From: Protoeuglena noctilucae
Lineage: Eukaryota
Assembly (NCBI GenBank): GCA_958009085.1
Contig: OY253682.1
Span: 124,001 to 188,000, forward strand
DNA: 64,000 nucleotides
Direction: 5' to 3'
Positions within the stretch are counted from its first letter, which is position 1. Every line of letters starts with the position of its first letter. A program made the translations under genes and the position numbers. Positions 3,441-44,117 of the stretch are shown here, one piece after another. The notes beneath the pieces are model-generated. The model searched no databases, was not told the DNA's origin, and was given only the letters and a program-made list of their open reading frames with translations.

Positions 3441-6400
3441 TCACTTCCCGTACATGGCGTTGAGCTCCTTGAGGTACCTCTTCTTGAGCTGCGGCCGGCG
3501 CAGCTTGAACGTGGGCGTCATGAGGTCGTTCTCGACCGTGAAGGCCTCGGGCGTCACGTGGACCTTCTTGATCATCTCGAAGCCCCGCAGCTTGGCCTCC
3601 CGCCCCGTGGCCTCCAGCTCCTCCATCACCCACTTGTTGGCGGCCGGGTGGGCGCAAAGAGCGGCGAAGTCCCCCTCGATGCCGTTGGATGCGGCCCACT
3701 TCTTGATCGCGCCCTCGCTCGGCACCACCACCGCCACCACGTACGTCTCGGTGGACTGCAAGGGGGGTGGAGAGGGTGGCATTCGGTGTTCTGCAATGAG
3801 ATCATACCAGGTACATCTCCGTAGATTGCAAGGGGGGTGGAGAGGGTGGCACTGAGCGTTCTGCAGTGAGAGCATACCAGCTACGTCTCGGTGGACTGCA
3901 AGTGGTGGCAACAAGAGTGGCAGAAAGGGTGGGAAGGGTGGCAGTCGATGTCTGCAATGATAGCCGACTGGGGTGGCGAGGGTGATAAGGCAATACCAAT
4001 AGCAGGCTCACCTCCCCGTAGACGAAGATCTGGTCCATGTTGGTGTTCTTCTTGAGGGCCGCCTCCACCACCTCGCTCGACACGTACTCCCCCTGCGCCA
4101 GCTTGAACATGTTCTTGGCACGGTCGATGATCTTCAAGGCGCCGTTCTCCTGCACCTCGCCCACGTCGCCCGTGCGGAACCACTCCCCGCTGCGAGGGGT
4201 GGGGGAGGCAAGGGTGAGGGGGCACTGGTACAGGTGAGCGCATGAAAGTATGAAAGTGGTATGGTCGACAGTTGCAGCCAGGACCTCAAGCCAGGCACCC
4301 CCAGCCAACAGCAAACCTCAGCCCACGTAGCCCCACTCACGATCCCCCATGCATCTCACCTGAACGTCTCTGCCGTCTTGGCCTGGTCCTTGAAGTACCC
4401 CGCGAACACCCCCGGCCCACGGAGCAGGATCTCGCCCCTCGGGGGGTCCGCGGTCGCATTGTAGCCCATCTCCGGGAGGCTCTCCAGGCAGAACTCGGTG
4501 CCTGCCGTGGGGAACCCGGCCGTCTGGAAGAAGCCGTCCCAGACCTCGGCGTCGACGAAGGACGCCGCACACGTCTCTGTGAGGGGGATGGGGTGTGGGG
4601 TGGGGGGTGAGGGGTGCGGGAGAGGGTGAGGGTGAGGGCAGGGGGTGGAGGGTGGGGGGTGAGCGGTGAGGGTGAGGGAGGGGGTTGGTGAGGAGGGACG
4701 GGCGCGGAGGGGAGGAGGGTGAGGGGTGAGGAACGTGGATGGCAGGCATCCGTCACTCTTGAGCCCATACCCCTGCACCCACCCTTGACAACACCCTTCA
4801 CCCCTGCCCATGCATCATCCCTCACCCGTGGGGCCGTACCCCTGCACCCACTCTTAGCACCAGTCACCCAAACCCGTTCACCCCTTCCCATACACCATCT
4901 CACCTGTGAGCCCGTACCCCTGCACGAACTTGGCGCACATTGCGACACGCACGAACTCCTCCGTGTGCCTGGCGATAGGCGCCCCGCCGGAGACGATGAC
5001 GCGCACGCGGCCGCCGAGCAGCCCCTTGATCTTGGAGAAGACGATGGTGTCCGCCAGCCACGAGGCGGACTCGACCGGGGCCCCGTCCATCATGAAGGCC
5101 TTCTTGCGGGAGAAGAGCCAGTTGAAGAGGAGGCGGCGGAGGAGGCTCTGCTGCAGGCCCTGCTGCACGCGGGCGTAGATGCGGTCGAACACGCGGGGAA
5201 CGCCCAGGAGCATCGTGGGGCGGAGGGCTGCCAGGTCGTCCATCAGCCCCGCGATGTCGCCGCGCCAGTAGCCGATGGACCCCCCGACGTGCGTGAAGAG
5301 CTCCTCGTTGACCCGCTCGAAGATGTGGGCGAGGGGGAGGTAGGAGATGAGCACGTCGTCCTGGGTGAAGACGAGGTCGGCGCACTGGCGGCTGTGGCAG
5401 ATGAGGGAGTAGACGGTGTGGACGAGCGAGCGATGCGTGAGCATGACGCCCTTGGGGTCGCCCGTAGTGCCCGACGTGTACATGATGGTCGACAGGTCGT
5501 CGGCGGAGGGCGGGGTCGCAGGGGTCATGGACGCCTTGCCCTGCTCGATGAACTGGTCGCAGGAGGCTGCGGGGGGTGAGGGGGAGAATGGTGAGTGCTG
5601 TCATGGTGATCGTTGTCACGAGCAAGCGCAGTCGTGGGCGAGCGTCGTGCAGACGGAGGGTCCACAGCGACCGCACGCAGCACGCAGCACATTGCCTTTG
5701 ACAAGACTGTCTAGTACGAGCGTCACATCGCCAGCCACGCACCCGTCTTGAGCGTGGAGGGGACCTTGGCGATCTCCTCCGCGGACGCGCTGCCCCAGTA
5801 TACCACGGTGGTCACGCCCGTCTTGGGCAGAGCGGCGGCCAGGGCACCAAGCTTCTTAGAGGACACGAACACCGCCTTGGCCTCCGAGTGGCTCAGAATG
5901 TACTCGGCGGCGTTGGGGCCAAGTGACTCGTAGACTGGGGGGGTGGACAGAGGGAGGGACTGGTGGGTTGTGGGGCAGGGGACGGGGGAGGTGGGAGGAG
6001 TTGTGACGCAATGTGCAATACGCCTGGATGTGCATCCCATGCGGGGGCGCTCGCGTGGCACAGTCGGCATGCTATCAGTGCGTCATGTGACGTTGGCCCA
6101 GCGTGAGCGGCCGGTGCTGCATGGCTGCATGGCTCACCGGGCACGCAGACGAGGCCCATGCGGTTGCAAGCCTGCATGGCCATCAGCCACTCGGGGGCGT
6201 TGGATCCGAAGATGCCGACCTGCGGGGGAACTGCCGAGGGCGATTCTGCAGCGGGGCTGCGGGGACCGGGGCCGCGGGGCTGCCCCTGTCGCGCCCACCC
6301 ACCTTGTCGCCCTTTTTGACGCCAGCGGCCGCGAGCGCGGAGCCCAGGGCCTCAACCATGGCGAAGACCTCCGAGTACGTGAGCCACGTGTAGGGAGATG

Positions 6401-34143: not shown

Positions 34144-37100
34144 ATGGTTGCGGGTACGCAGTCATCGCCGCAGAGTCGGGAGGATGACGATGCACTGGCT
34201 GCCAAGCGCAATGGGCGCGGGGAGGAGGCCAGGTGCGATACTGCACGTGCCATCCAATTGGGGCTCGTTCTGCGCGCCCATGACCGTCCATCTGAGCGCC
34301 CGACGCGTCCACATCGCTGTTGACTTTGTCTCTGTCCGGAACGCGGCGCCTGCGGATTCTTCAACTGCCCGCCTGCTTCCCATCCTGCGCCTTTTGTTGC
34401 GTGACGCAGGGACGCCCAATCCTCCGAACGGTCGCACCGCGTGACGTCTCCGTCCAGGTCTCGGTCCCGTTCTCGAGCCCTGTCCCGCGACGGGCGCTCG
34501 AGGAGCCCGAGCGGGAGCGATGGGGGCCGCTCGCGGTCGCATGGCCGCTCTGCTAGTGAGCACGGCGAAGCGATGCGATTTTCGCAGCCGCGCTCATCGG
34601 GGAGGGTCTCCTCTATGCGCGAGTTAGAGGAAGGGGAGATCATGGACGTTGACGAGGTGAACGGGGGAGACAGCGTGATTTTGGGCCATGTTCGGCCGCG
34701 ATGGACGCAACAGGCGTTTGTAACCGTACGTTTTTCTAACCATTATGCGCCGCTTTGTGCGACAGGACCATGCGGGCGGCCGGGCCCGCCGCGGGGAGGA
34801 CGGCACGGACGCTTCCGCTTCAGGGAGCTCTCGCTCCGTTTCGCGGTCGCGTTCCCCGTCCGGGCACCGCGATTCGTCCCGTTCACGCTCGCGATCCGTC
34901 GCCAGTCGGCGGGAGGGCCGGCCGGAGCCGTCCGCGCGTGACGGCAGCGGGGCGAAGGCAAGGTCCGGTCGGGCAGATGCGGAGGCCGGGGCGCGGCCGT
35001 CAGAGAGCGAGCGTGCGGGTGAGGGAGACGACGATCGAGAGGAGGGCGAGATGGACGAAGCAGAGGTGGAGCGTGGGGGCGGGGCGGGGGCGCGGGCGAG
35101 CAAGGGGAGGCCGGAGGAGGGCGGGGTGCAGGAGAGGGAGAGGGAGAGAGAGAGAGAGAGGGAGGGGGGCAGTGAGAGGGGGCGTGAGAGGGAGCGCGAG
35201 AAAGAGAGGGAGAGGGAGAAGGAGAGGGGGCGGGACAGGGAGCGGGAGCGGGGGAGGGAGCGGGGTGAGGGGGAGCGAGACCGGAGTGGGAGGGGGAGGG
35301 AGAGGGAGAGGGAGAGGGAGAGAGAGAGGGAGAGGGCTGAGCGTGATAAGGGAAGGGAGAGGGAGAGGGGCGGGCGGGAGAGGGAGAGAGACAGGGAGAG
35401 GGAGAGGGGGAGAGATGCGGGGGGTGGGCGGGAGCGAGAGCGAGAGCGAGATCGGGACAGAGATAGGGAGCGAGAGAGAGACAGGGGGCGAGAGAGGGGT
35501 CCGCTTCGTAGTCGCGATGGCGACAGGGGCCGTGGCGACGTTGGCGGCGACCGGGGTGGTCGCCGCGAGCGTGACTGGGATTGGGGTCGGGACGTGGGGC
35601 CGAGGGACAGGGTTAGAGACCGTGAGCGGGGCTGGGATCGAGATAGGGAGAGAGATAGGGACAGGGACCATCGGGGCAGAGACAGGGACCGGGAGAGGGA
35701 GAGGGGCGTCAAGCGGCGTCGCGAGGAGGGAGGGACGGAGACGCCCAGCGTGGAGGAGGGGGCGGTGGCGGCCAAGCTGGCGATGGCACTGGAGGGAGGG
35801 GGCGATCCGGAGGCGGAGGAGGCGGAGAGGAGGAGGGAGGAGCGGCGGAGGAGACTGGAGGCGATCAAGGCCAAGCACGGGGGGGGAGCAGAGGGGCCGG
35901 GGGCGGCGGCGGAGGGGGTGGTAGAGGCGGGTGCGGGGGCGGCGGCGGGAGCAGCGGAGGGGGGAACAGCGGCGGGGACGGTGGCAGGAGTGGCGGGGTT
36001 GGCAGGTGGGGTGGCGGGAGCAGCGGGGGGTGCGGCGGGAGGGGCGGGGGTGGCAGCAGCGGGAGCACCATCCGGCGCGGGGAGGGAAGCAGTGGGAACG
36101 CTTAACGGCGAGGGTGTGGCGGAAGGGGACGTGGATCTGGAGAGAGACGCGTGGGCAGCGACGGCGGGGGCCGACCTGTTTGTGAGGCGGGTGGCGGAGG
36201 CCCCCGGTGGTGGCGAGGGTGACGGTGCGGCGCAGGCGGCGGCGGCGGCGGCGGTGGAGGTGGATATGTTCGGCGCGACGCCGGTGGGGGCGGCGGGGCC
36301 TGGGCCGGGGGATGCGGCGGGGGTGGCGGGCGTGGGTGCGGGTGCGGGCGGCGGGCAGGGTCTAGTGGATAACTACGACGACGCGGAGGGTTATTACAAG
36401 TGGCGCACGGGGGAGATGCTCGCGGGGCGGTACGAGGTGTTCGCGGCGCACGGGAAGGGCGTGTTTGGGTCGGTGCTACGCGCGCGCGACCACAAGTCGC
36501 ACGCGCTCACGCTCGGCGGGCAGCGACCGGAGGTGGCGATCAAGATGGCTCGCGCGAACGACACGATGTACAAGCAGGCGCAGTCGGAGCGCGCGGTGCT
36601 GGCCAAGCTGGCGCAGACGGACCCGGAGAACCGGGCTCACTGCATCCGGATGCTCGATTATTTCGAATACCGCGGCCACGCGTGTTTGGTATTCGAGAGC
36701 ATGGACATGAACCTGCGCACGCTGGTGCGGAAGTTCGGCCGGGACATCGGTCTGTCGCTGCAGGCGGTGCGCGCTTACGCCATTCAGCTCCTCTTCGCTT
36801 TGCGGCATCTCCGCCAGAACGGGATCCTGCACGCGGACATCAAGCCCGACAACATCCTCGTGTCCGCGGACCGCAGCGTCATTAAGATCTGCGACTTCGG
36901 CAGCGCACTGTTCGGGTGAGGGGGAGGGGCAGGGGGCAGAGTGTTGTGTGCAGGGTGGCAGGGTGGGTGTGCCTGGTCGGGCTTGGCTGTGAGGAGGGAC
37001 TGTGACGATACGGGGCACTTGGATAGACACGGGAAGGCTGTGCGTGCGATGTACGCAGCTCAGCACGCGCAGCGACAGGGCACCGACCCTCTCCTGCGGT

Positions 37101-38363
37101 GTCCACATGCCATTTCCACTCCACAGCAGCAGCCGCGACACGACCCTCTCTCACCACCAATCAGCCCCATCCTCGCCCTCACTGTCCTCACCAGCACCCA
37201 CCTCACCCACCTCACCCTCACCCCCGCAGCGGCGACAACGACGTCACCCCCTACCTCGTCTCCCGCTACCACCACCTCACCACTAACACTCACCCCTCCT
37301 CTCCCCCACTGCAGTGGCGACAACGACATCACCCCCTACCTCGTCTCCCGCTACTACCGGCCCCCCGAGGTCATCCTGGGCCTCCGCTACGACCATCCAA
37401 TGGATATGTGGGCCGTGGCGTGCGTCCTATACGAGCTCTACACCGGCCGCATCTTGTTTCAAGGCCGTAGTAACAACGAGATGCTCTCTCAGTTCCAGGA
37501 CCTCAAAGGGCCTTTTCCGAAGAAGATGCTCCGAAAGGCCGCGTTCCGGGACCACCACTTCGAGGGGGAGCCGCACTTTGCATTTTGGTGAGCGGAGGGG
37601 GGTTGAGGGTTGGGGGTGAGGGGGGGGGTGGTAGAGGGTGGGGGGAGGGGGTGGGGTGGTGAGGGTGGCTTAGTAGTCAGGTTGGGGTGAAAACTATCCA
37701 TGGATGTCGATGGGCAAGGCAGCATGCTGAGCCCCGTCTTGCCCCTGCGAACCCTCTCGCACCCCTTCACCTCACCCCAGCGTCATCGACAGCGACCCCA
37801 CTTCCCAATGCGTTACCCATGCGAATCCTCCCAAACCCCCACCCCCCCAGTGTCATTGAGAGCGACCCGACCACCGGCGAGCCCCGTCGCCGCGTGGTGC
37901 CCAGCCCGGCCGCCAAGGAGACGATGAGGGACCGGCTGGCCGCCATGGGGACGCAGGGGAACCGGAAGATGATGCTGGCGCTGGCGGACCTGCTCGACAA
38001 GGTGGGGGTGTTGGGGTGGTGGGGTGGATGGGGTGTTAGGGGGTGGGGTGTTCGTGGATATGAGCATGGACTGGATCCCAACAGGCACATGGTGTAATTC
38101 CTCTCTTTATTTTTTCTGTTCCCATCTCACGATATCAATCTCCGCAGATGCTGTCGTTGGACCCTGACAAGCGCATCACGGTGTCCCAGGCGCTGCGCCA
38201 CCCCTTTATCACGGGGGTGCTGGCGCCCAGGCCAGAGAAGGAGAAGGATAAGGGTAAGGCGGGGGGTGCGGGGGCGGGTGTGGCTGGCAAGGCGTGCCGG
38301 GCGAGAGGGGTGGCGACGATGGGAATTGCGTTGGCGTTTGGAGGGACAGGTGGCGAGATTTGA
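34144..38363 (+). CDS. PRPF4B: Pre-mRNA processing factor 4 kinase with long RS/RE/RD-rich N-terminus
   Basis: DNYDDAEGYY, GKGVFGSV, HADIKPDNIL, ICDFGSA, NDITPYLVSRYYRPPE, KGPFPKKMLRK, LDPDKRITVSQALRHPFI. Confidence 0.95.
35125..35705 (+). repeat. Coding purine-rich low-complexity tract (RE/RD dipeptides) in PRP4K
   Basis: (gagagg)n-like sequence translating to REREREGRDRDR. Confidence 0.85.
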
Positions 38364-39153
38364 AGTAACAAGAAGTAACAAGATGGGGAGCCGTGCGATG
38401 TGGGGATACAGTTATGTTGTGGTCGTAACATGCACAGCCTTGGGTCGCTTGAATCGTGAGAGCGAGGTGGCTGTGTGTGCGAGTTGAGTGGTGGGTGCGC
38501 AGGGGACAGGGCATGTAGTTGGCTTCCGAGGCGAGGGAGGTGTTGAAAAACACCGTAGTAGTTGGTGAAGACGAGTAGATCAAGGGTGCTTCACTGCTGG
38601 TCGTGGTGGCGACCACCGATGCACCCTGGGGGCGCCAAGGTGGGGCGGGTGTGGTGAGAGGAGGGGCTGTAGATGACACCAACTACTACATCAGTAACTA
38701 CTATGTCAGTTGCCATAAGGTGCTGTATTATATTGGGTGACACAGGTCAGCGACGCTGACGGCGGTAGCCTAAACGTTGTTTCGCCCTCCCTGGATGCGC
38801 GGCCGCCACCGTGACACGTCCATGCATGAAGGGGAGAGCCAGGTCGCTCTGGCCACCGCATCATGCCGCAGCCACCATGGAGAGACGGCCTGGCTCAGAG
38901 GGGTGGCAGGGGGGGGACACGAGGAGGCACATACAAAAGCCTCACCCAAAGGACGGGCAGCCCGGTCGCACTCACGTCACGGCGCGTCTTGCATCCGCAC
39001 CGTCCCACCGCGTCTCGCACCAACACCGCCATCCCTGAGTGTCCCTGAGTGCGCGAGAGGACACGGCAGCGATGAGAGACGTCCCAACCGGGCCACGAAT
39101 GCGACCCGCTGAGAGGCGGACACGCGACACGCTTGGATGTGCGTCGCGTGCGT

Positions 39154-39318
39154 GCGTGTGCGGCGCCTGATTTGCGCCTGCGACCCGACCCCCATGGTGA
39201 ATGTCAGTACCAGTGGGGGCGCGCAGGCACATGCTTAGGGCGCCGCGAGTGCGTCTGCGGTGCCCTGATTAGCGGCCGTCACGGGCCGAGGCCTCGGGCC
39301 GCGCGATTTTCGGCACCG
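39154..39318 (-). ncRNA. Box H/ACA snoRNA, two hairpins; 5' pocket fits LSU CUUGAUU-U-UGAUUUUC, 3' pocket orphan
   Basis: Stems CGGUGCC/GGCACCG and GCGGCGCC/GGCGCCGC; pocket GAAAAUC...AAUCAG 14 nt from AGA; terminal ACA at 39157-39159. Confidence 0.75.
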
Positions 39319-39479
39319 GAAGGGGCGTGGGGCAAAGTTGGCGACAAAGGGGATAGCCCAGATGACGACAGCACAGCAAACCTAGTTGCAAATGGTGAGC
39401 CGGCATGGTAACAACCGTGAGCCCTAACCGCGCATGACACGAACACCTTCATGCACAAAACAACCCATAAAACCCAAAA

Positions 39480-39583
39480 CCCTCGAGGCCTCAGACCCTT
39501 AGATTCGCCATCAGATTGCGCTCAGGTGCACTTTCGAGCTCTTAGGTCTAGCGTGCGGGTTTTTTCATCAGCGGCCTCGAGGG
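39480..39583 (-). ncRNA. Box C/D snoRNA; D guide AUCUAAGGGU fits 18S GCCCUUAGAU
   Basis: 11-bp terminal stem CCCUCGAGGCC/GGCCUCGAGGG; C box UGAUGA (39565-39570), D' CUGA (39522-39525), D CUGA (39491-39494). Confidence 0.85.
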
Positions 39584-39917
39584 TGGGGGTGGGGGTGGGG
39601 TGGAAAGGAAGGTGGGGGTGTGGGGGGCTGGGCTATGTAACTCATCTGAGCAATGCATGGCATGCTGCGGCCACCGACTTGCATAACATGATGTGTCTCA
39701 CCTGGGGCGGCTGGGGTGGCTGGGCAGCTTGATGGTGAGCTTCAAGTTAGGCAGCTTGGCGTGCGCCACCACTGTAGCAGTGGAGCTGGGCCTCTTGCCT
39801 GAGTTGATGCCTGCACCTGGGGGAGGGAGGGACAAAGGAGCGTTGCTTTCTCAAGCGCAGCAGTGTGCTCGCGACAGGCCGAGCGCGGCTGGGCGCAACT
39901 GGGCTAGGATGCGCGTG

Positions 39918-40073
39918 GCGTGTGCAGCCATCAATTCGCCGGCCCTCAGGGGGATCGGGCAGGCGACTCAACAGGCCCGCTTGGATGTATGCCCTATGGG
40001 GCCCCCACTGGCGCAAGGGCGGCCCCAAAGATGCCGCCTTGGGGACGCCGGCGCCGTGGGGGAAGTACGGGCA
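39918..40073 (-). ncRNA. Box H/ACA snoRNA; 3' pocket is snR36/SNORA36-like (18S UUAAUU-U-GACUCAACA), 5' pocket fits 18S GGGGC-U-CGAAG
   Basis: Pockets UGUUGAGU...AAUUGA and CUUC...GCCCC, each 13-14 nt from an ACA; terminal ACA at 39921-39923. Confidence 0.8.
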
Positions 40074-40220
40074 GTTTGGCGACTTAGCGCAGAAACAAGA
40101 GAGCATTCGAAAGCAAATGGCAGTGGAAAGCGGAGGCGAGAAGGAGGTAGGTGGGGAAGCTGCAGCATGGCGGCATGCGTGGGATCCATGATATACAAGA
40201 GTGGGAAACAAAACACGGCC

Positions 40221-40320
40221 CCGTGCTCGGCGCTTCTTAGAGGGTATACTTTTTTTGATCCCCACGGGCCGGAGCCCACTCGGAGGATTGACAGATAAAA
40301 AGTGGGTCGTCACGGCACGG
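40221..40320 (-). ncRNA. Dual-guide box C/D snoRNA (U61/SNORD61-like D guide plus snoR14-like D' guide)
   Basis: Stem CCGUGC/GCACGG; C box GUGACGA; D' guide AUCUGUCAAUCCU+CCGA (18S AGGAUUGACAGAU); D guide CCCUCUAAGAAGC-G+CCGA (18S GCUUCUUAGAGGG). Confidence 0.9.
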
Positions 40321-40363
40321 GGCTTGGGGTGAAGGCGGAACAGGCAAACGAGGTGTCAACAAA

Positions 40364-40449
40364 GGCTCTCGGGAAGGACCCATTTCCAAATCACTCGGGT
40401 CATACGGCACTTCCTATACAGCGTAAAGGGTTTCTCTCGTCCTCGAGCC
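40364..40449 (-). ncRNA. U49: Box C/D snoRNA U49 (SNORD49) homolog
   Basis: Stem GGCUC/GAGCC; C box AGGACGA; signature guide AUAGGAAGUGCCGU followed by D' AUGA; D box CCGA. Confidence 0.85.
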
Positions 40450-40660
40450 GCGGGCGCGCAGGGACAGGGGTTTGCAACTGGAAAGGATGCACTCAGGGAA
40501 ACAGGACCCGCGTGCTGCTTGACCCCAGTGGGTGGCTCACCTGACGCTGGCGTAGTGAGTGAAATTCGGACCCTTGACATCGACCGTGGCAGCTCGAGAT
40601 GGTAGACGGTAGGCATGCTCAGCGTCCGCCTGTCAGCTACGTCCTGCGTGGGAGAAATAC

Positions 40661-40802
40661 AGATGTCATGGCTGATAACGGCACTGGCAACAGCCACGGC
40701 GGGGCTTGGCCAGCTTCCTGGGCCAAGGGGTTTGGTCTGCGCAATTTTCTGGACTCCCTGTGTCATCAGCCGGGGCCTGCACAGGTCGTGGCAAAACTGC
40801 GC
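40661..40802 (-). ncRNA. Box H/ACA snoRNA candidate, possibly U65/snR34/snoR2-related
   Basis: Hairpin GCGCAGUUUU/AAAAUUGCGC, canonical H box AGACCA (40733-40738), 3' stem CGUGGCUG/CAGCCAUG then ACA; CAAGC, GCCAG and GUUAUC are complementary to LSU GAUAACUGGCUUG. Confidence 0.6.
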
Positions 40803-40837
40803 GCGAGAACCGCTGTTGCGGCGCTCCCCACCTAGCA

Positions 40838-40924
40838 ACATCTCGACCAAAAGAGGGCGAGCGGCGGTCGATCCACTGCACGTGCCTGCGGCGAGTTGAA
40901 GAGCGAGGCTCTTCATCCCGATGT
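40838..40924 (-). ncRNA. Orphan box C/D snoRNA candidate
   Basis: Stem ACAUC/GAUGU; C-like GGGAUGA; D-like UCGA; no convincing target recognised. Confidence 0.45.
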
Positions 40925-40958
40925 CCCCGCGCGAGCGCGAGATTGAAAGGAGATGTTG

Positions 40959-41096
40959 AGATGTCTGCGGTGCTTGACACCGGCGGGGCCACGGACGGGG
41001 CAACGCCAGCAACACGACTGCAAAAAAGCTCTCGCACACGAGACAGGGACACGTGCCCTACGGCGAAGCGGCCGTGCCCGGGGTGAGGATGTGTGC
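40959..41096 (-). ncRNA. Box H/ACA snoRNA; 3' pocket snR35/SNORA13-like (18S UUUGAC-U-CAACACG), 5' pocket fits 18S AGACA-U-AGUGAGGAU
   Basis: Pockets CGUGUU...GUCAAG 14 nt from ACA (40962-40964) and AUCCUCAC...UGUCU about 14 nt from AGA (41030-41032). Confidence 0.85.
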
Positions 41097-41269
41097 TGCG
41101 CCGGCGCCGGCGGGCGGAGCGAGGCGCGGGGGGCGCCGGAGCGGCGCACACGCACCTGGGACGATTCCGGTCCACGTCACCCCTGCTGGCGCCGCCTGCG
41201 GGGGCCGGGGAGGCCGGAAGAGGTCGCATCGGTATGAAAAGAGATTGAACTTTCCACTCCCATGAGAGG

Positions 41270-41412
41270 AAGTGTACCAGCGAGACAGGTCAGTGCGCAC
41301 CCACGAAAAGCGGCGTGCACTGGTTTTTGATCTGGTTTCCTGCTCTAAGCCCCCACTGACAGCGCGCCGCAGATTGCGGTCTGCGGACGCCAACGCCTCT
41401 AAATAGGGGCTA
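41270..41412 (-). ncRNA. Box H/ACA snoRNA domain; 3' pocket snR42-like (LSU GAGACAGGU-U-AGUUUU), 5' pocket fits LSU AUGAC-U-GAACGCCUCUAA
   Basis: Stem AGCCCC/GGGGCU, H box AGAGCA (41341-41346), stem ACCAG/CUGGU then ACA (41273-41275); pocket spacing 14-15 nt. Confidence 0.85.
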
Positions 41413-41821
41413 GCGTCTCCCGGCCTCGGCCGGCGGCAGGGACGGCCCACCGGCCGCCGCCGGCCCCGGGACTCGCACCGACGGCGCGGCGGGTCCCCGG
41501 CGCCGGTCCCTGCCTAAGACGATGTTCATCAAACGCATCGCACGCCGGGCATCTCTGAAGGGCGGCTGCCTCACCTCTTTGGCGCTCCGAGGCCCGCCGA
41601 CATCACGGGCGGGGCCCGCGACGGGCTCGGACGACGCTCATGATTAGGGACTTCAGGTAACCCCGCGTGGCGGGCTCTCAAGGGGGGGCGACCGATGACA
41701 CGGCCAGCCTGGCGAGGGTATTCCCCGCAGCCTACCCTCAGCGCGCGGGCGCTTAGCCCCGCTCGCCCGCTCCCGACCCCCCTTTCCAAACCCAACGGGT
41801 AGGCGCCGTCCGCTGGGAGAG

Positions 41822-43183
41822 ATGGATCAGACCGAGAGGGCCTACCAAAAGCAGGTGGGCGGCGGGCCCAGGGATGCTCGGGGGCGCCCCGAGAGCCGCT
41901 CCCGGGGGATCGCGGCGACGAATGCGCCGAGGCGACCCTCCTCCACCCGCAGGTGGGGGTGAACGTGGGCTTCCGCAAGCCCACGAAGAGGGTGCCGGGC
42001 AAGTATGGCCTGAGGTACTACAAGAACGTGGGGCTGGGCTTCTCTACGCCCAAGGAGGCCATCGAAGGTGGGGCGCGCGTCACCGTGGCGCCGGCGTCGC
42101 GCTGGGTCCCCGGTCCTGGCGCCTGTCGCTCCGCGCCGGTTTTCGATGGTGCCTTGCGGTTTCTTTACCTTATTCGCCTCCCAGCGTATCTCCTTGAGCG
42201 CTCTGGGACGCGCGCCGGGCCCTGGACGAGGCCAGAGCGCTTCCAGGGTCCGGGCATGCCCGGCAGGCCCATTTGGTTGCCCGTGCAGCCGCCAGGATGC
42301 ACTGGGGATGCCGCGGTCTGCTCGGGCGGCCCGACTTGCGACCTGGGGGGCCGGAGGACGGCCACGGCCATCCCACGCGTCCCTGGCCCGCTGCTGGGAT
42401 TTCCTGGCCTGTTGTCAGGGGTTTGGCCGCTCCCCGAATGACCTTACTTGTCGTTTGTCCCGAGACCATGCGCGGCGCCCCGTGTCCGCGGCTTTGAGGC
42501 GCAGGGAGTCTCGCCGTAGGCTGGCCAGCCGACCGGCTCTGTGGCTGCGCGACTTTCGCGCCGGTGCTCGCATCGCCGTGCTCCCTGACCTTCGCTGTGC
42601 GCCTCACGTATCTGGACGCCGCTGCGTGCCCCCCGCAGGGAAGTACATCGACAAGAAGTGCCCCTTCACCGGCAACGTGTCCATCCGCGGCCGCATCATG
42701 ACGGGGGTGGTCAAGTCGACCAAGATGAACCGCACCATCATCGTGAAGAGGTGCGGGCGCGCGGGGCCGCCCGGCCACGGCGACGGCCGGGGCTCTTGGG
42801 GCGCTGCGAGGGCTGCGAGCGTCGGCTGACCTCTCTCCGACCACCGCGCACCTGCCTTCGCACCGCAGGGAGTATTTCCACTTCGTCCGGAAGTACCAGC
42901 GGTACGAGAAGCGCCACTCCAACACCCCCGCGCACGTCTCGCCGTGTTTCCGTGTGCGTGAGGGCGACACGGTCACCATCGGGGAGTGCCGGCCGCTGTC
43001 CAAGGTGCGTCTTTGCATCTGCTGCGCAGTTCCGGTCACCGGCCGGAGCTCCAGGAGCGCACGGACGCTGCACATGCATGCATCGACCGCTCTCCGGTGT
43101 CGTGGCTCCCGCAGACGGTCCGCTTCAACGTGCTCCGCGTGACGCCCGCCTCGGGCGCCAAGAAGGGCTTCTCCGGCTTCTGA
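41822..43183 (+). CDS. RPS11: 40S ribosomal protein S11 (uS17), 5 exons
   Basis: [11 protein letters not shown]|...[38 protein letters not shown]...|...[31 protein letters not shown]...F then TGA. Confidence 0.97.
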
Positions 43184-44117
43184 AGACGCCGCCGTGGCGT
43201 CGCCGGCGCGCCGGCCTGCAGGCCGCGAGTGCACGCGGCGCGCCGTGGTCGGTCGCTGCAGCGGCCTGCGGCAGGCCTCGCCGGCGCGCGTCCCTGCGCG
43301 CGGTCGTGCCAATCCACGACGTCCTCTCCCCGGGCGCCGTTTCGCTGGTCCGTTCTTGCCCTGCGCTCCTAGCACCGTCTTGAACTCATGTGCCGACTTG
43401 GCAGGCTCAAGACACGAGTGTCCGTCCTCGCCGTGTGGTGTGGGACTGCTTGAGGATGGAGAGCTGGCGCCTGCGCCGTTTATGAGCCGGGTGCAACTTG
43501 GCAGACACATCCTGGGGCAGCACAGGCTCTTACCAGAGCCTGGTAAGCGGCACATGACCCACAACCGATGGAATTGATGACAGCGATCGCAAAGAGGTTG
43601 CAGAACCGCATCTGTCGAGCTCCGGCGGTGCAGGGCTGCCCCACACACTTGCACGCTCCCCAGCAGCCCACAGGCTTCGACGCTCGGCGTCTGCAGCGCC
43701 CATACGTTCCGTAATCGTCGTATCTTGCACATGATAGCTGGCTGAGCGTCAGCCGACCGGTGGATGTGCCGCGCTTTCAACCACGCGCAGCGCTTCGTGC
43801 GGCCCTGGCTCCGGCGGTGCCTTTATTGCGGACTTGTCTAGTCTACGAGAGCGCTGTTACATAAGCTTGGTGAGCGCGTCGAAGGCCGTGTCGCTTGCTG
43901 CTGCTTCAGCGTCGAGGGCCCTCCACGTAGGGCGCCCAGGAGAGCCCCTGCCCCTCCCTACGAGGCCTGCATCGATCGCGCATGAATCGCGATAGCTTTT
44001 TTGTACATTTGCAGGTTGCGAGGGCAGGACGACTGCCCACCTCGCGCGCTACCCCAGCCGCGGGCCCCCGTCTCGCGCTCGGTTGAGCCTGATGGCCCCC
44101 GCGCGGCGTCGGGCGGC

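Follow-up and report, generated by a model that had tools for sequence, protein, structure and literature searches.

Evidence for a cluster of small nucleolar RNA genes head-to-head with RPS11 in the picoalga Protoeuglena noctilucae

Between the genes for a PRP4 kinase (PRP4K) and the ribosomal protein RPS11, a 64-kb stretch of Protoeuglena noctilucae DNA (contig OY253682.1, positions 124,001 to 188,000; hereafter the window) has a gap that is poor in open reading frames (ORFs), and the question that this locus raises is what, if anything, the gap encodes. An earlier note had read it as the host of nine small nucleolar RNAs (snoRNAs), four of the box C/D and five of the box H/ACA class, arranged on the minus strand. 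No ORF with a family or a homologue was found in the gap, which bears out its description as ORF-poor. Instead, a genuine snoRNA cluster very probably occupies the minus strand of 39155-41410, with targets correctly named for five of the six guide names that had been put forward, and six of the nine claimed snoRNAs (two box C/D and four H/ACA) are supported. Both flanking genes lie on the plus strand with the interval between them, so that any minus-strand gene here faces RPS11 head-to-head and the kinase gene tail-to-tail; the proposed minus-strand cluster of guides for ribosomal RNA (rRNA) modification, divergent from RPS11, is upheld. We also favour, with moderate confidence, a reading in which the six belong to one minus-strand transcript and sit in four GT..AG introns of a non-coding host diverging from RPS11; the RNA's strand and splicing, the route by which it is processed and a possible co-regulation with RPS11 are what we infer.

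Guide RNAs of the minus-strand cluster

Two guides of 13 nucleotides (nt) lie on a single box C/D RNA, CD2 (40218-40323; this and all other RNAs, exons and introns of the locus are on the minus strand), which appears in a scan of both strands of the window for C and D boxes 45-230 nt apart, in that order, that are closed by a terminal stem of 4 base pairs (bp) or more. The 18 relaxed box pairs returned by the scan comprise two nested pairs in a second RNA, CD1 (stems of 12 and 4 bp), that of CD2 (9 bp) and 15 elsewhere with stems of 4-6 bp. CD2 has a C box (GTGACGA) at 40313-40307, a D′ box (CCGA) at 40283-40280 and a D box (CCGA) at 40230-40227, and its fold, compared with shuffled sequences, gives a z of -2.37. 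The D′ guide forms 13 Watson-Crick bp with 18S AGGATTGACAGAT, a target present in 20 of 112 ribosomal DNA (rDNA) loci, and the D guide likewise forms 13 Watson-Crick bp with 18S GCTTCTTAGAGGG (22 of 112). Under the fifth-nucleotide rule the mark falls on a U for both guides, and the calculated chance expectation for perfect 13-mers in 5.5 kb of rRNA is about 2e-4. Both guide words also occur in Ostreococcus tauri, in Ot-CDsno90 and Ot-CDsno24, which are tabulated as SNORD110/At-snoR14 (18S Um1202) and SNORD61/At-snoU61 (18S U1348), respectively (PMC7671301); the assignments to snoR14 and U61 in the earlier note were therefore right, with both guides on one RNA. We propose that CD2 would direct 2′-O-methylation of two 18S uridines, one at the SNORD110/snoR14 site and the other at the U61 site.

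The rDNA loci used throughout were fetched from metagenome contigs with a 5.8S primer and oriented. An Rfam check of six long loci identified one (L048) as a complete 18S-5.8S-large-subunit (LSU) unit and five as partial, and most of the 112 are short pieces without the relevant part of 18S, which bears on the target counts of the two CD2 guides. A 17-nt 18S motif, tried in viral contigs as a source of rDNA, led to eight loci of which none contains rRNA, and these were discarded as chance matches.

The second box C/D RNA, CD1 (39479-39584), has a C box (TGATGA) at 39570-39565, a D′ box (CTGA) at 39525-39522, a C′ box (TGATGG) at 39513-39508 and a D box (CTGA) at 39494-39491. Its terminal stem of 12 bp is the longest in the window, and its fold has a z of -3.87 that none of 200 shuffles reaches. 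Boxes with a terminal stem are thus common to CD1 and CD2, and a guide of at least 10 nt at a known methylated site is found in CD2. The uridine predicted for the CD1 D guide is the one listed for Ot-CDsno16 (18S.U1412, the At-snoR19 equivalent), and we regard CD1 as a well-formed C/D RNA that may carry a weak guide to this snoR19-type 18S uridine together with one orphan guide. The other two box C/D RNAs that had been claimed are not supported: the stretches that could hold them have no canonical boxes and fold no better than shuffles.

For the H/ACA class, pockets were fixed from the stems of four units, searched in the complete rDNA of L048 and scored against 200 shuffled rRNAs; five of the eight pockets have an rRNA target, and in these five the proposed spacing of 13-15 nt from pocket to box holds. 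The hairpin-hinge-hairpin-ACA arrangement is seen in four of the five RNAs claimed, by boxes in I1b and I2a and by minimum-energy fold in I3c and I4; the fifth is not supported.

In I1b (41270-41410; H box AGAGCA at 41346-41341, ACA at 41275-41273; fold z -2.14), the 3′ pocket matches LSU TGAGACAGGT-TA-GTTTT, the snR42-type 25S site, and the 5′ pocket matches LSU GGC-TG-AACGCCTCTAAG, near the 3′ end of 25S; each target is present in 6 of the 112 loci and each score is reached by none of the 200 shuffles. Over the final 20 nt of the 3′ hairpin, ACA included, I1b has the same sequence as the printed Ot-HAsno120, an RNA assigned to 25S.U2807 and to SNORA26/snR42 (PMC7671301, supplement). This 20-nt word, used as a probe for relatives, gave no match in viral contigs and a single match in a bacterial metagenome-assembled genome, about the chance expectation, and was abandoned for that purpose; the match lies at 6001-6020 of a Nitrospiraceae contig (L123), and about one such is expected by chance in the 596 billion bases.

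I2a (40959-41098; H box AGAGCT at 41032-41027, ACA at 40964-40962) resembles snoR134. Its 3′ pocket matches the snR35/ACA13 site in the small-subunit (SSU) rRNA, TTTGAC-TC-AACACGG, with 13 pairs of which 2 are G-U (20 of 112 loci; 4 of 200 shuffles), and its 5′ pocket matches SSU GGGACAG-TC-GGGG (9 of 112 loci; 6 of 200 shuffles). In I3c (39918-40075; hinge ATACATCC at 39990-39983, ACA at 39923-39921), the 3′ pocket matches SSU TTAATT-TG-ACTCAACA, the snR36-type 18S site, in 20 of 112 loci and at a score reached by none of the 200 shuffles; the minimum-energy fold is the canonical hairpin-hinge-hairpin-tail (z -3.38; 0 of 200 shuffles), and the guide word TGTTGAGT and a similar hinge are also found in Ot-HAsno84, listed as 18S.U1158, snR36 (PMC7671301). 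The fourth unit, I4 (39155-39320), is a probable H/ACA RNA with an H-like box (AGACGC) at 39256-39251 and an ACA at 39159-39157, whose minimum-energy fold has two hairpins with pockets, separated by a hinge and followed by an ACA tail (z -3.91; reached by none of 200 shuffles).

From these pockets, I1b, I2a and I3c are predicted to guide pseudouridylation at the snR42-type 25S site and at the snR35-type and snR36-type 18S sites, respectively, and I1b may act in addition at the site near the 3′ end of 25S; I4 would be an H/ACA-shaped RNA for which no target was found. When the 5′ pocket of I3c and the two pockets of I4 were displaced by as much as 3 nt, the matches were weak or fungal-type, and no target was assigned to these pockets. 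Six further guide words compared with the O. tauri supplement gave no matches.

Taken with the fetched rDNA and the published tables, the guide names snoR14/SNORD110, U61, snR35/SNORA13, snR36 and snR42 stand and U49 does not: rDNA complementarity searches of the locus found no U49 guide. Complementary 10-mers to rDNA, sought for U49 and for other guides, are about equally frequent on the two strands (17 versus 20 and 18 versus 12), and this search brought up no new match of at least 13 nt at a conserved place and no further C/D RNA. Five stretches in which the remaining claimed folds could lie, 41545-41411, 40949-40800, 40800-40655, 40489-40340 and 39480-39335, have fold z values between -1.77 and +0.71, no better than shuffled sequence, and are without canonical boxes or conserved rRNA complementarity. 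The first of them, in the proposed intron 1, forms a branched hairpin of very high G+C content (-78 kcal/mol, z -1.42); it is covered by RNA contigs of one metatranscriptome (run X10) and has no snoRNA boxes. At 41652-41640, in the proposed exon 1, 13 nt are perfectly complementary to five of the fetched rDNA loci, with no C/D frame around them; about 0.3 such matches are expected by chance.

A number of observations count against these assignments and have to be weighed together. At gathering thresholds, Rfam returns no match in the whole 64-kb window. In E-value mode over 3.8 kb it gives eight matches with E of at most 10, and those relevant to snoRNAs are all on the minus strand: snoR134 (RF01430) at 41098-40959 over the full length of the model, with 28.4 bits against a gathering threshold of 40 and an E of 0.0044; SNORD110 (RF00610) at 40318-40272, with 20.7 bits against 64 and an E of 1; and snoR64 (RF00267) at 39579-39484, with 19.4 bits against 45 and an E of 6.3. 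As all three scores lie below gathering, we call these RNAs functional equivalents and, by the rule of Rfam, not family members. The CD2 boxes are degenerate, with CCGA in place of CUGA twice and one change in the C box (GTGACGA), and when G-U pairs are tolerated in scoring, 7 and 1 of 300 shuffled rRNAs reach the scores of its D′ and D guides. The CD1 D guide is weak, with 10 bp (9 Watson-Crick and 1 G-U) to 18S GCCCTTAGAT, found in 28 rDNA loci, and is not significant alone, its score being reached by 41 of 300 shuffles; the CD1 D′ guide has no match in the fetched rDNA. Among the H/ACA units, the fold of I2a does not differ from that of shuffled sequences (z -0.52), the fixed-pocket search found no rRNA target for the I3c 5′ pocket and none in L048 for either pocket of I4, and both the hinge box of I3c (ACATCC) and that of I4 (AGACGC) lack the last A of ANANNA. 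The reference rRNA comes from a soil or other eukaryote and not from this alga. Open H/ACA scans with all ACA and ANANNA-like boxes did no better than decoys (83 real matches versus 79), and a second such scan gave 82 matches against 57-89 in 20 shuffles, with decoy maxima of up to 15.5; the pocket statistics consequently rest on pockets that were fixed partly after the first scan.

The Rfam null deserves separate comment. Missing Rfam matches for U49 and U61 had been named in advance as a result that would speak against the locus, and no match at threshold was indeed obtained; the guide analysis shows that this carries low weight. The null says little because guide matches were found and because models of short, fast-evolving snoRNAs seldom reach as far as a distant alga. 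The best E-value from Rfam belongs to Fibro-purF, a bacterial cis-regulatory motif, at 40232-40307 on the minus strand (28.8 bits against a gathering threshold of 60; E 0.00041). We take this match for a false positive that stems from the internal hairpin of CD2, with which it overlaps.

The same points invite the explanation that folds and boxes alike are chance products of a sequence with 67% G+C (the value for the window), with no functional small RNA behind them. G+C-rich DNA folds readily, the H/ACA geometry filter lets through 87 of the 622 minus-strand ACA triplets, the open scans behave like decoys and the Rfam thresholds are not reached; the scans and the filter, neither of which beat decoys or background, were for their part dropped as evidence. 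We nevertheless find this explanation scarcely credible: it would have to account for two perfect 13-nt CD2 guides to known methylation sites within one C/D frame closed by a 9-bp stem, for the 20-nt identity of I1b to an experimentally detected O. tauri snoRNA, for reproducible RNA cover of the locus and for three pockets whose matches to named pseudouridylation sites have scores that 0-4 of 200 shuffles reach.

RNA contigs and the proposed spliced host

How, then, are the six RNAs made? The junctions that had been proposed for a host, 41574/41196, 41155/40644, 40540/39817 and 39701/39109, have GT..AG exactly there. The proposed exon 1 (41575-41706, its 5′ end not mapped) ends in the donor AAAGAG|GTGAGG at 41575/41574 and is followed by intron 1 (41196-41574, 379 nt), which contains I1b and closes with the acceptor CCCCCGCAG|G. 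Exon 2 (41156-41195, 40 nt) lies between this AG and the donor TCCCAG|GTGCGT; intron 2 (40644-41155, 512 nt; acceptor TCTCCCACGCAG|G) contains I2a. Exon 3 (40541-40643, 103 nt; donor CGTCAG|GTGAGC) precedes intron 3 (39817-40540, 724 nt; acceptor CCCTCCCCCAG|G), which contains CD2 and I3c, and exon 4 (39702-39816, 115 nt; donor CCCCAG|GTGAGA) precedes intron 4 (39109-39701, 593 nt; acceptor GCCTCTCAG|C), which contains CD1 and I4. The proposed last exon (38890-39108, its 3′ end not mapped) begins after the AG at 39110-39109 and holds the tail of a 134-codon ORF considered below. Each of the four donors has the form AG|GTG, and each acceptor is a pyrimidine-rich YAG; the RPS11 donors proven by RNA are similar (AG|GTGCGG and AG|GTGCGT). 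A motif for strong donors, AGGT[GA][AC]G, has 23 minus-strand matches in the window; the four within 38500-42000, where about 1.3 are expected by calculation, are exactly the four host donors.

All six supported snoRNAs fall inside proposed introns and none in a proposed exon. Introns 1 and 2 would hold one each and introns 3 and 4 two each, in agreement with the claim of several snoRNAs per intron; since introns 3 and 4 each combine a C/D with an H/ACA RNA, the one-snoRNA-per-intron pattern of UHG and GAS5 hosts does not apply, and the locus fits the intronic-cluster variant. In the mechanism that we propose, the minus-strand transcript would start about 120-250 bp from the RPS11 start codon and run towards the 3′ end of the PRP4-kinase gene. 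After splicing and debranching, exonucleases would trim the introns as far as the bound core proteins and so set the snoRNAs free; an intron with two snoRNAs would require an additional cut between them, and the short host exons would be a throw-away product. Between CD2 and I3c lies a pyrimidine-rich spacer of 130 nt (40215-40085, minus strand) that is almost unstructured (-12.1 kcal/mol), a candidate site for that extra cut.

Contigs of RNA from three runs bear on this proposal; two of the runs, X9 and X10, are metatranscriptomes of different samples in one study, the contigs give no strand, and the third run yielded pieces of RPS11 only. Those of X9 and X10 lie on 39105-39441, 40885-41195 and 41219-41706, with none on 38000-39100 or 39500-40880, and the regions covered by the one run and by the other have 639 nt in common, an extent reached by 10 of 5000 random placements. 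I1b is covered to 100% in X9 and 72% in X10, I2a to 97% and 100% in the two runs, and I4 to 69% in X9 and 100% in X10. The proposed exon 1 is covered, unspliced, by X9 41502-41706 and X10 41309-41632, and exons 3 and 4 have no contig in either run. One X9 contig (40963-41195) has one end on the first base of the proposed exon 2, while the other stops 4 nt before the 3′ end predicted for I2a; the end at 41195 is a weak hint, open to explanation as an assembly-graph branch between spliced and unspliced forms, as a processing intermediate or as coincidence.

Several features of these contigs tell against a spliced host. None of the three runs contains a host splice joint, whereas X10 shows two for RPS11, and the contigs over the locus are collinear with the genome, crossing the borders of exon 1 with intron 1, exon 2 with intron 2 and intron 4 with exon 5. 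No poly(A) end of the host was found among the contigs. An X9 contig of RPS11 (42650-42969, plus strand) retains a 118-nt intron that X10 shows spliced out, which points to pre-messenger RNA or DNA in the X9 library. Cover of CD1, CD2 and I3c is 0% in both metatranscriptomes. Libraries of this kind would not be expected to give contigs of short RNAs. The missing host joints are themselves weak evidence because contigs from low-depth metatranscriptomes drop rare forms.

These contigs bring in an alternative that accepts all six snoRNAs and differs in how they are made: one unspliced polycistronic precursor of the plant or Ostreococcus type, freed by endonuclease cuts in the spacers and exonuclease trimming, with the GT..AG signals unused or used occasionally. 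It draws on contigs that are unspliced throughout, cross three proposed exon/intron borders and offer no host joint, and on O. tauri, in which 49 of 131 snoRNAs lie in 12 clusters, mostly intergenic (10 of the 12), and all 72 intronic ones have protein-coding hosts (Bousquet et al. 2020, PMC7671301); Ot-HAsno120, Ot-HAsno84 and Ot-CDsno24, relatives of guides found here, sit in intergenic clusters. It is the main competitor of the spliced host and, in our view, the less likely of the two, given that four strong donors, the only four in 3.5 kb on this strand, are each paired with a pyrimidine-rich YAG acceptor like those of proven introns, that no supported snoRNA falls in a proposed exon and that the absence of joints weighs little at low depth.

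If the exons are indeed joined, they might encode a protein. When joined by script, they contain an ATG-started ORF of 134 codons that stays open across the proposed exons 3-5, and on this basis the host could be an ordinary protein-coding gene with the snoRNAs as intronic passengers. We judge this very improbable. Among 2000 shuffles, 206 contain an ORF of that length, as do 44% of 316 genomic 813-nt windows; the G+C content at third codon positions (GC3) is 0.72 as against 0.88-1.0 in PRP4K and RPS11; and the largest unbroken part of the ORF, in exon 5, has no Pfam family and no homologue among proteins of near or greater length. The ORF looks like chance. The non-coding exons that had been claimed for the host are thus borne out by ORF statistics, GC3 and the absence of a family or homologue for the unbroken exon-5 part that was searched.

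Relation to known snoRNA gene arrangements

Multi-intron non-coding hosts with snoRNAs in their introns are known from mammals as UHG and GAS5. The hosts of intronic snoRNA clusters in rice, Drosophila and Chlamydomonas are, by comparison, mostly protein-coding. The locus described here shares with UHG/GAS5-type hosts a multi-intron transcript, proposed from splice signals, with short unconserved exon ORFs and intronic snoRNAs; it differs from them in that they carry one snoRNA per intron and have splicing shown by complementary DNA, whereas here two introns would hold two units and splicing is predicted. Spliced non-coding UHG-like hosts with ORFs of 159-267 bp are described for clusters I-V of Neurospora crassa (PMC2780460). 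Intronic clusters in rice, Drosophila and Chlamydomonas, as cited in the Neurospora and O. tauri studies (PMC2780460, PMC7671301), resemble the present locus in having several snoRNAs of both classes per intron.

The closest comparison for individual guides is with O. tauri. The snoRNA sequence in common with Ostreococcus suggests that the source is a green alga of a Mamiellophyceae-like kind. Its snoRNA set includes guide functions for the snR42-type 25S, snR36-type 18S, SNORD110/snoR14, U61 and snoR19 sites, and there too C/D and H/ACA genes are mixed within one cluster. The differences concern arrangement. Five relatives that are together at one locus here are spread over four in O. tauri (clusters 2, 7 and 11, a nucleoporin gene and the SAS10 gene being the places named), which indicates that guides have been regrouped between lineages; the two CD2 guides are on one RNA here and on two there; intronic hosts are all protein-coding there, whereas the exons here look non-coding; and the O. 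tauri table has no snR35-type guide, the site matched here by I2a. That site connects I2a with AtsnoR134 of Arabidopsis (RF01430). This H/ACA RNA is about 144 nt long, and its second pocket is directed at the 18S uridine that corresponds to the target of snR35 in yeast and of ACA13 in human (Kim et al. 2010, PMC2875012). I2a, at 140 nt, aligns to the model from end to end and has the same 3′-pocket target, but stays at 28.4 bits against the gathering threshold of 40, and its 5′ pocket predicts another 18S site; AtsnoR134 for its part resides in independent polycistronic clusters with U36, U38, snoR6 and snoR97 (PMC2875012).

Our search of full-text literature found no snoRNA catalogue for Micromonas and no non-coding snoRNA host in Mamiellophyceae. 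We tentatively suggest, as a reading somewhat less likely than not, that the locus is a spliced non-coding host in a prasinophyte-grade green alga, joining the throw-away exons of animal and fungal UHG genes to plant-type multi-snoRNA introns, sharing with RPS11 a divergent promoter of at most 250 bp and carrying, gathered at one locus, guides that Ostreococcus has at four; guide RNAs and a ribosomal protein would then be under common control. The analysis adds about six snoRNA genes with named rRNA targets for a marine picoalga; one of the predicted guide sites is that of the hypermodified pseudouridine of 18S in other eukaryotes. It also offers a concrete locus at which to ask if the earliest-branching green algae have snoRNA hosts that are spliced but non-coding; reports for Ostreococcus are confined to hosts that encode proteins and to intergenic clusters. 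For annotation, the gap between PRP4K and RPS11 is not empty and the 134-codon ORF should not be called a gene. Clustered guides for rRNA modification adjoining ribosome-related genes are expected biology and a familiar kind of arrangement. The locus is of value chiefly for annotation and for tracing how the organisation of snoRNA genes has evolved in green algae.

The divergent interval and the flanking genes

The stretch between the most upstream base of the host covered by an RNA contig (41706) and the RPS11 ATG (41822-41824) is a divergent intergenic interval, 41707-41821, and a candidate shared promoter. Its geometry is observed; a promoter function and co-regulation with RPS11 are proposed. 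RPS11 (uS17) itself spans 41822-43396 on the plus strand; its exon at 42870-43001 matches uS17 chains with an E of 3.5e-22, and contigs of X10 give spliced joints at 42748/42867 and 43002/43113 and a loose poly(A) end at 43396.

On the other side, upstream of the snoRNA interval and also on the plus strand, the PRP4 kinase gene has a Pkinase domain whose best solved relatives are the PRP4 homolog (E 3.6e-52). The N-terminal half of its ORF, at 34724-36300 (plus strand), consists of long Arg/Ser, Arg/Glu and Arg/Asp dipeptide repeats that form an RS-like domain, and the strand opposite reads as Ser/Leu/Pro repeats, giving rise to long spurious ORFs.

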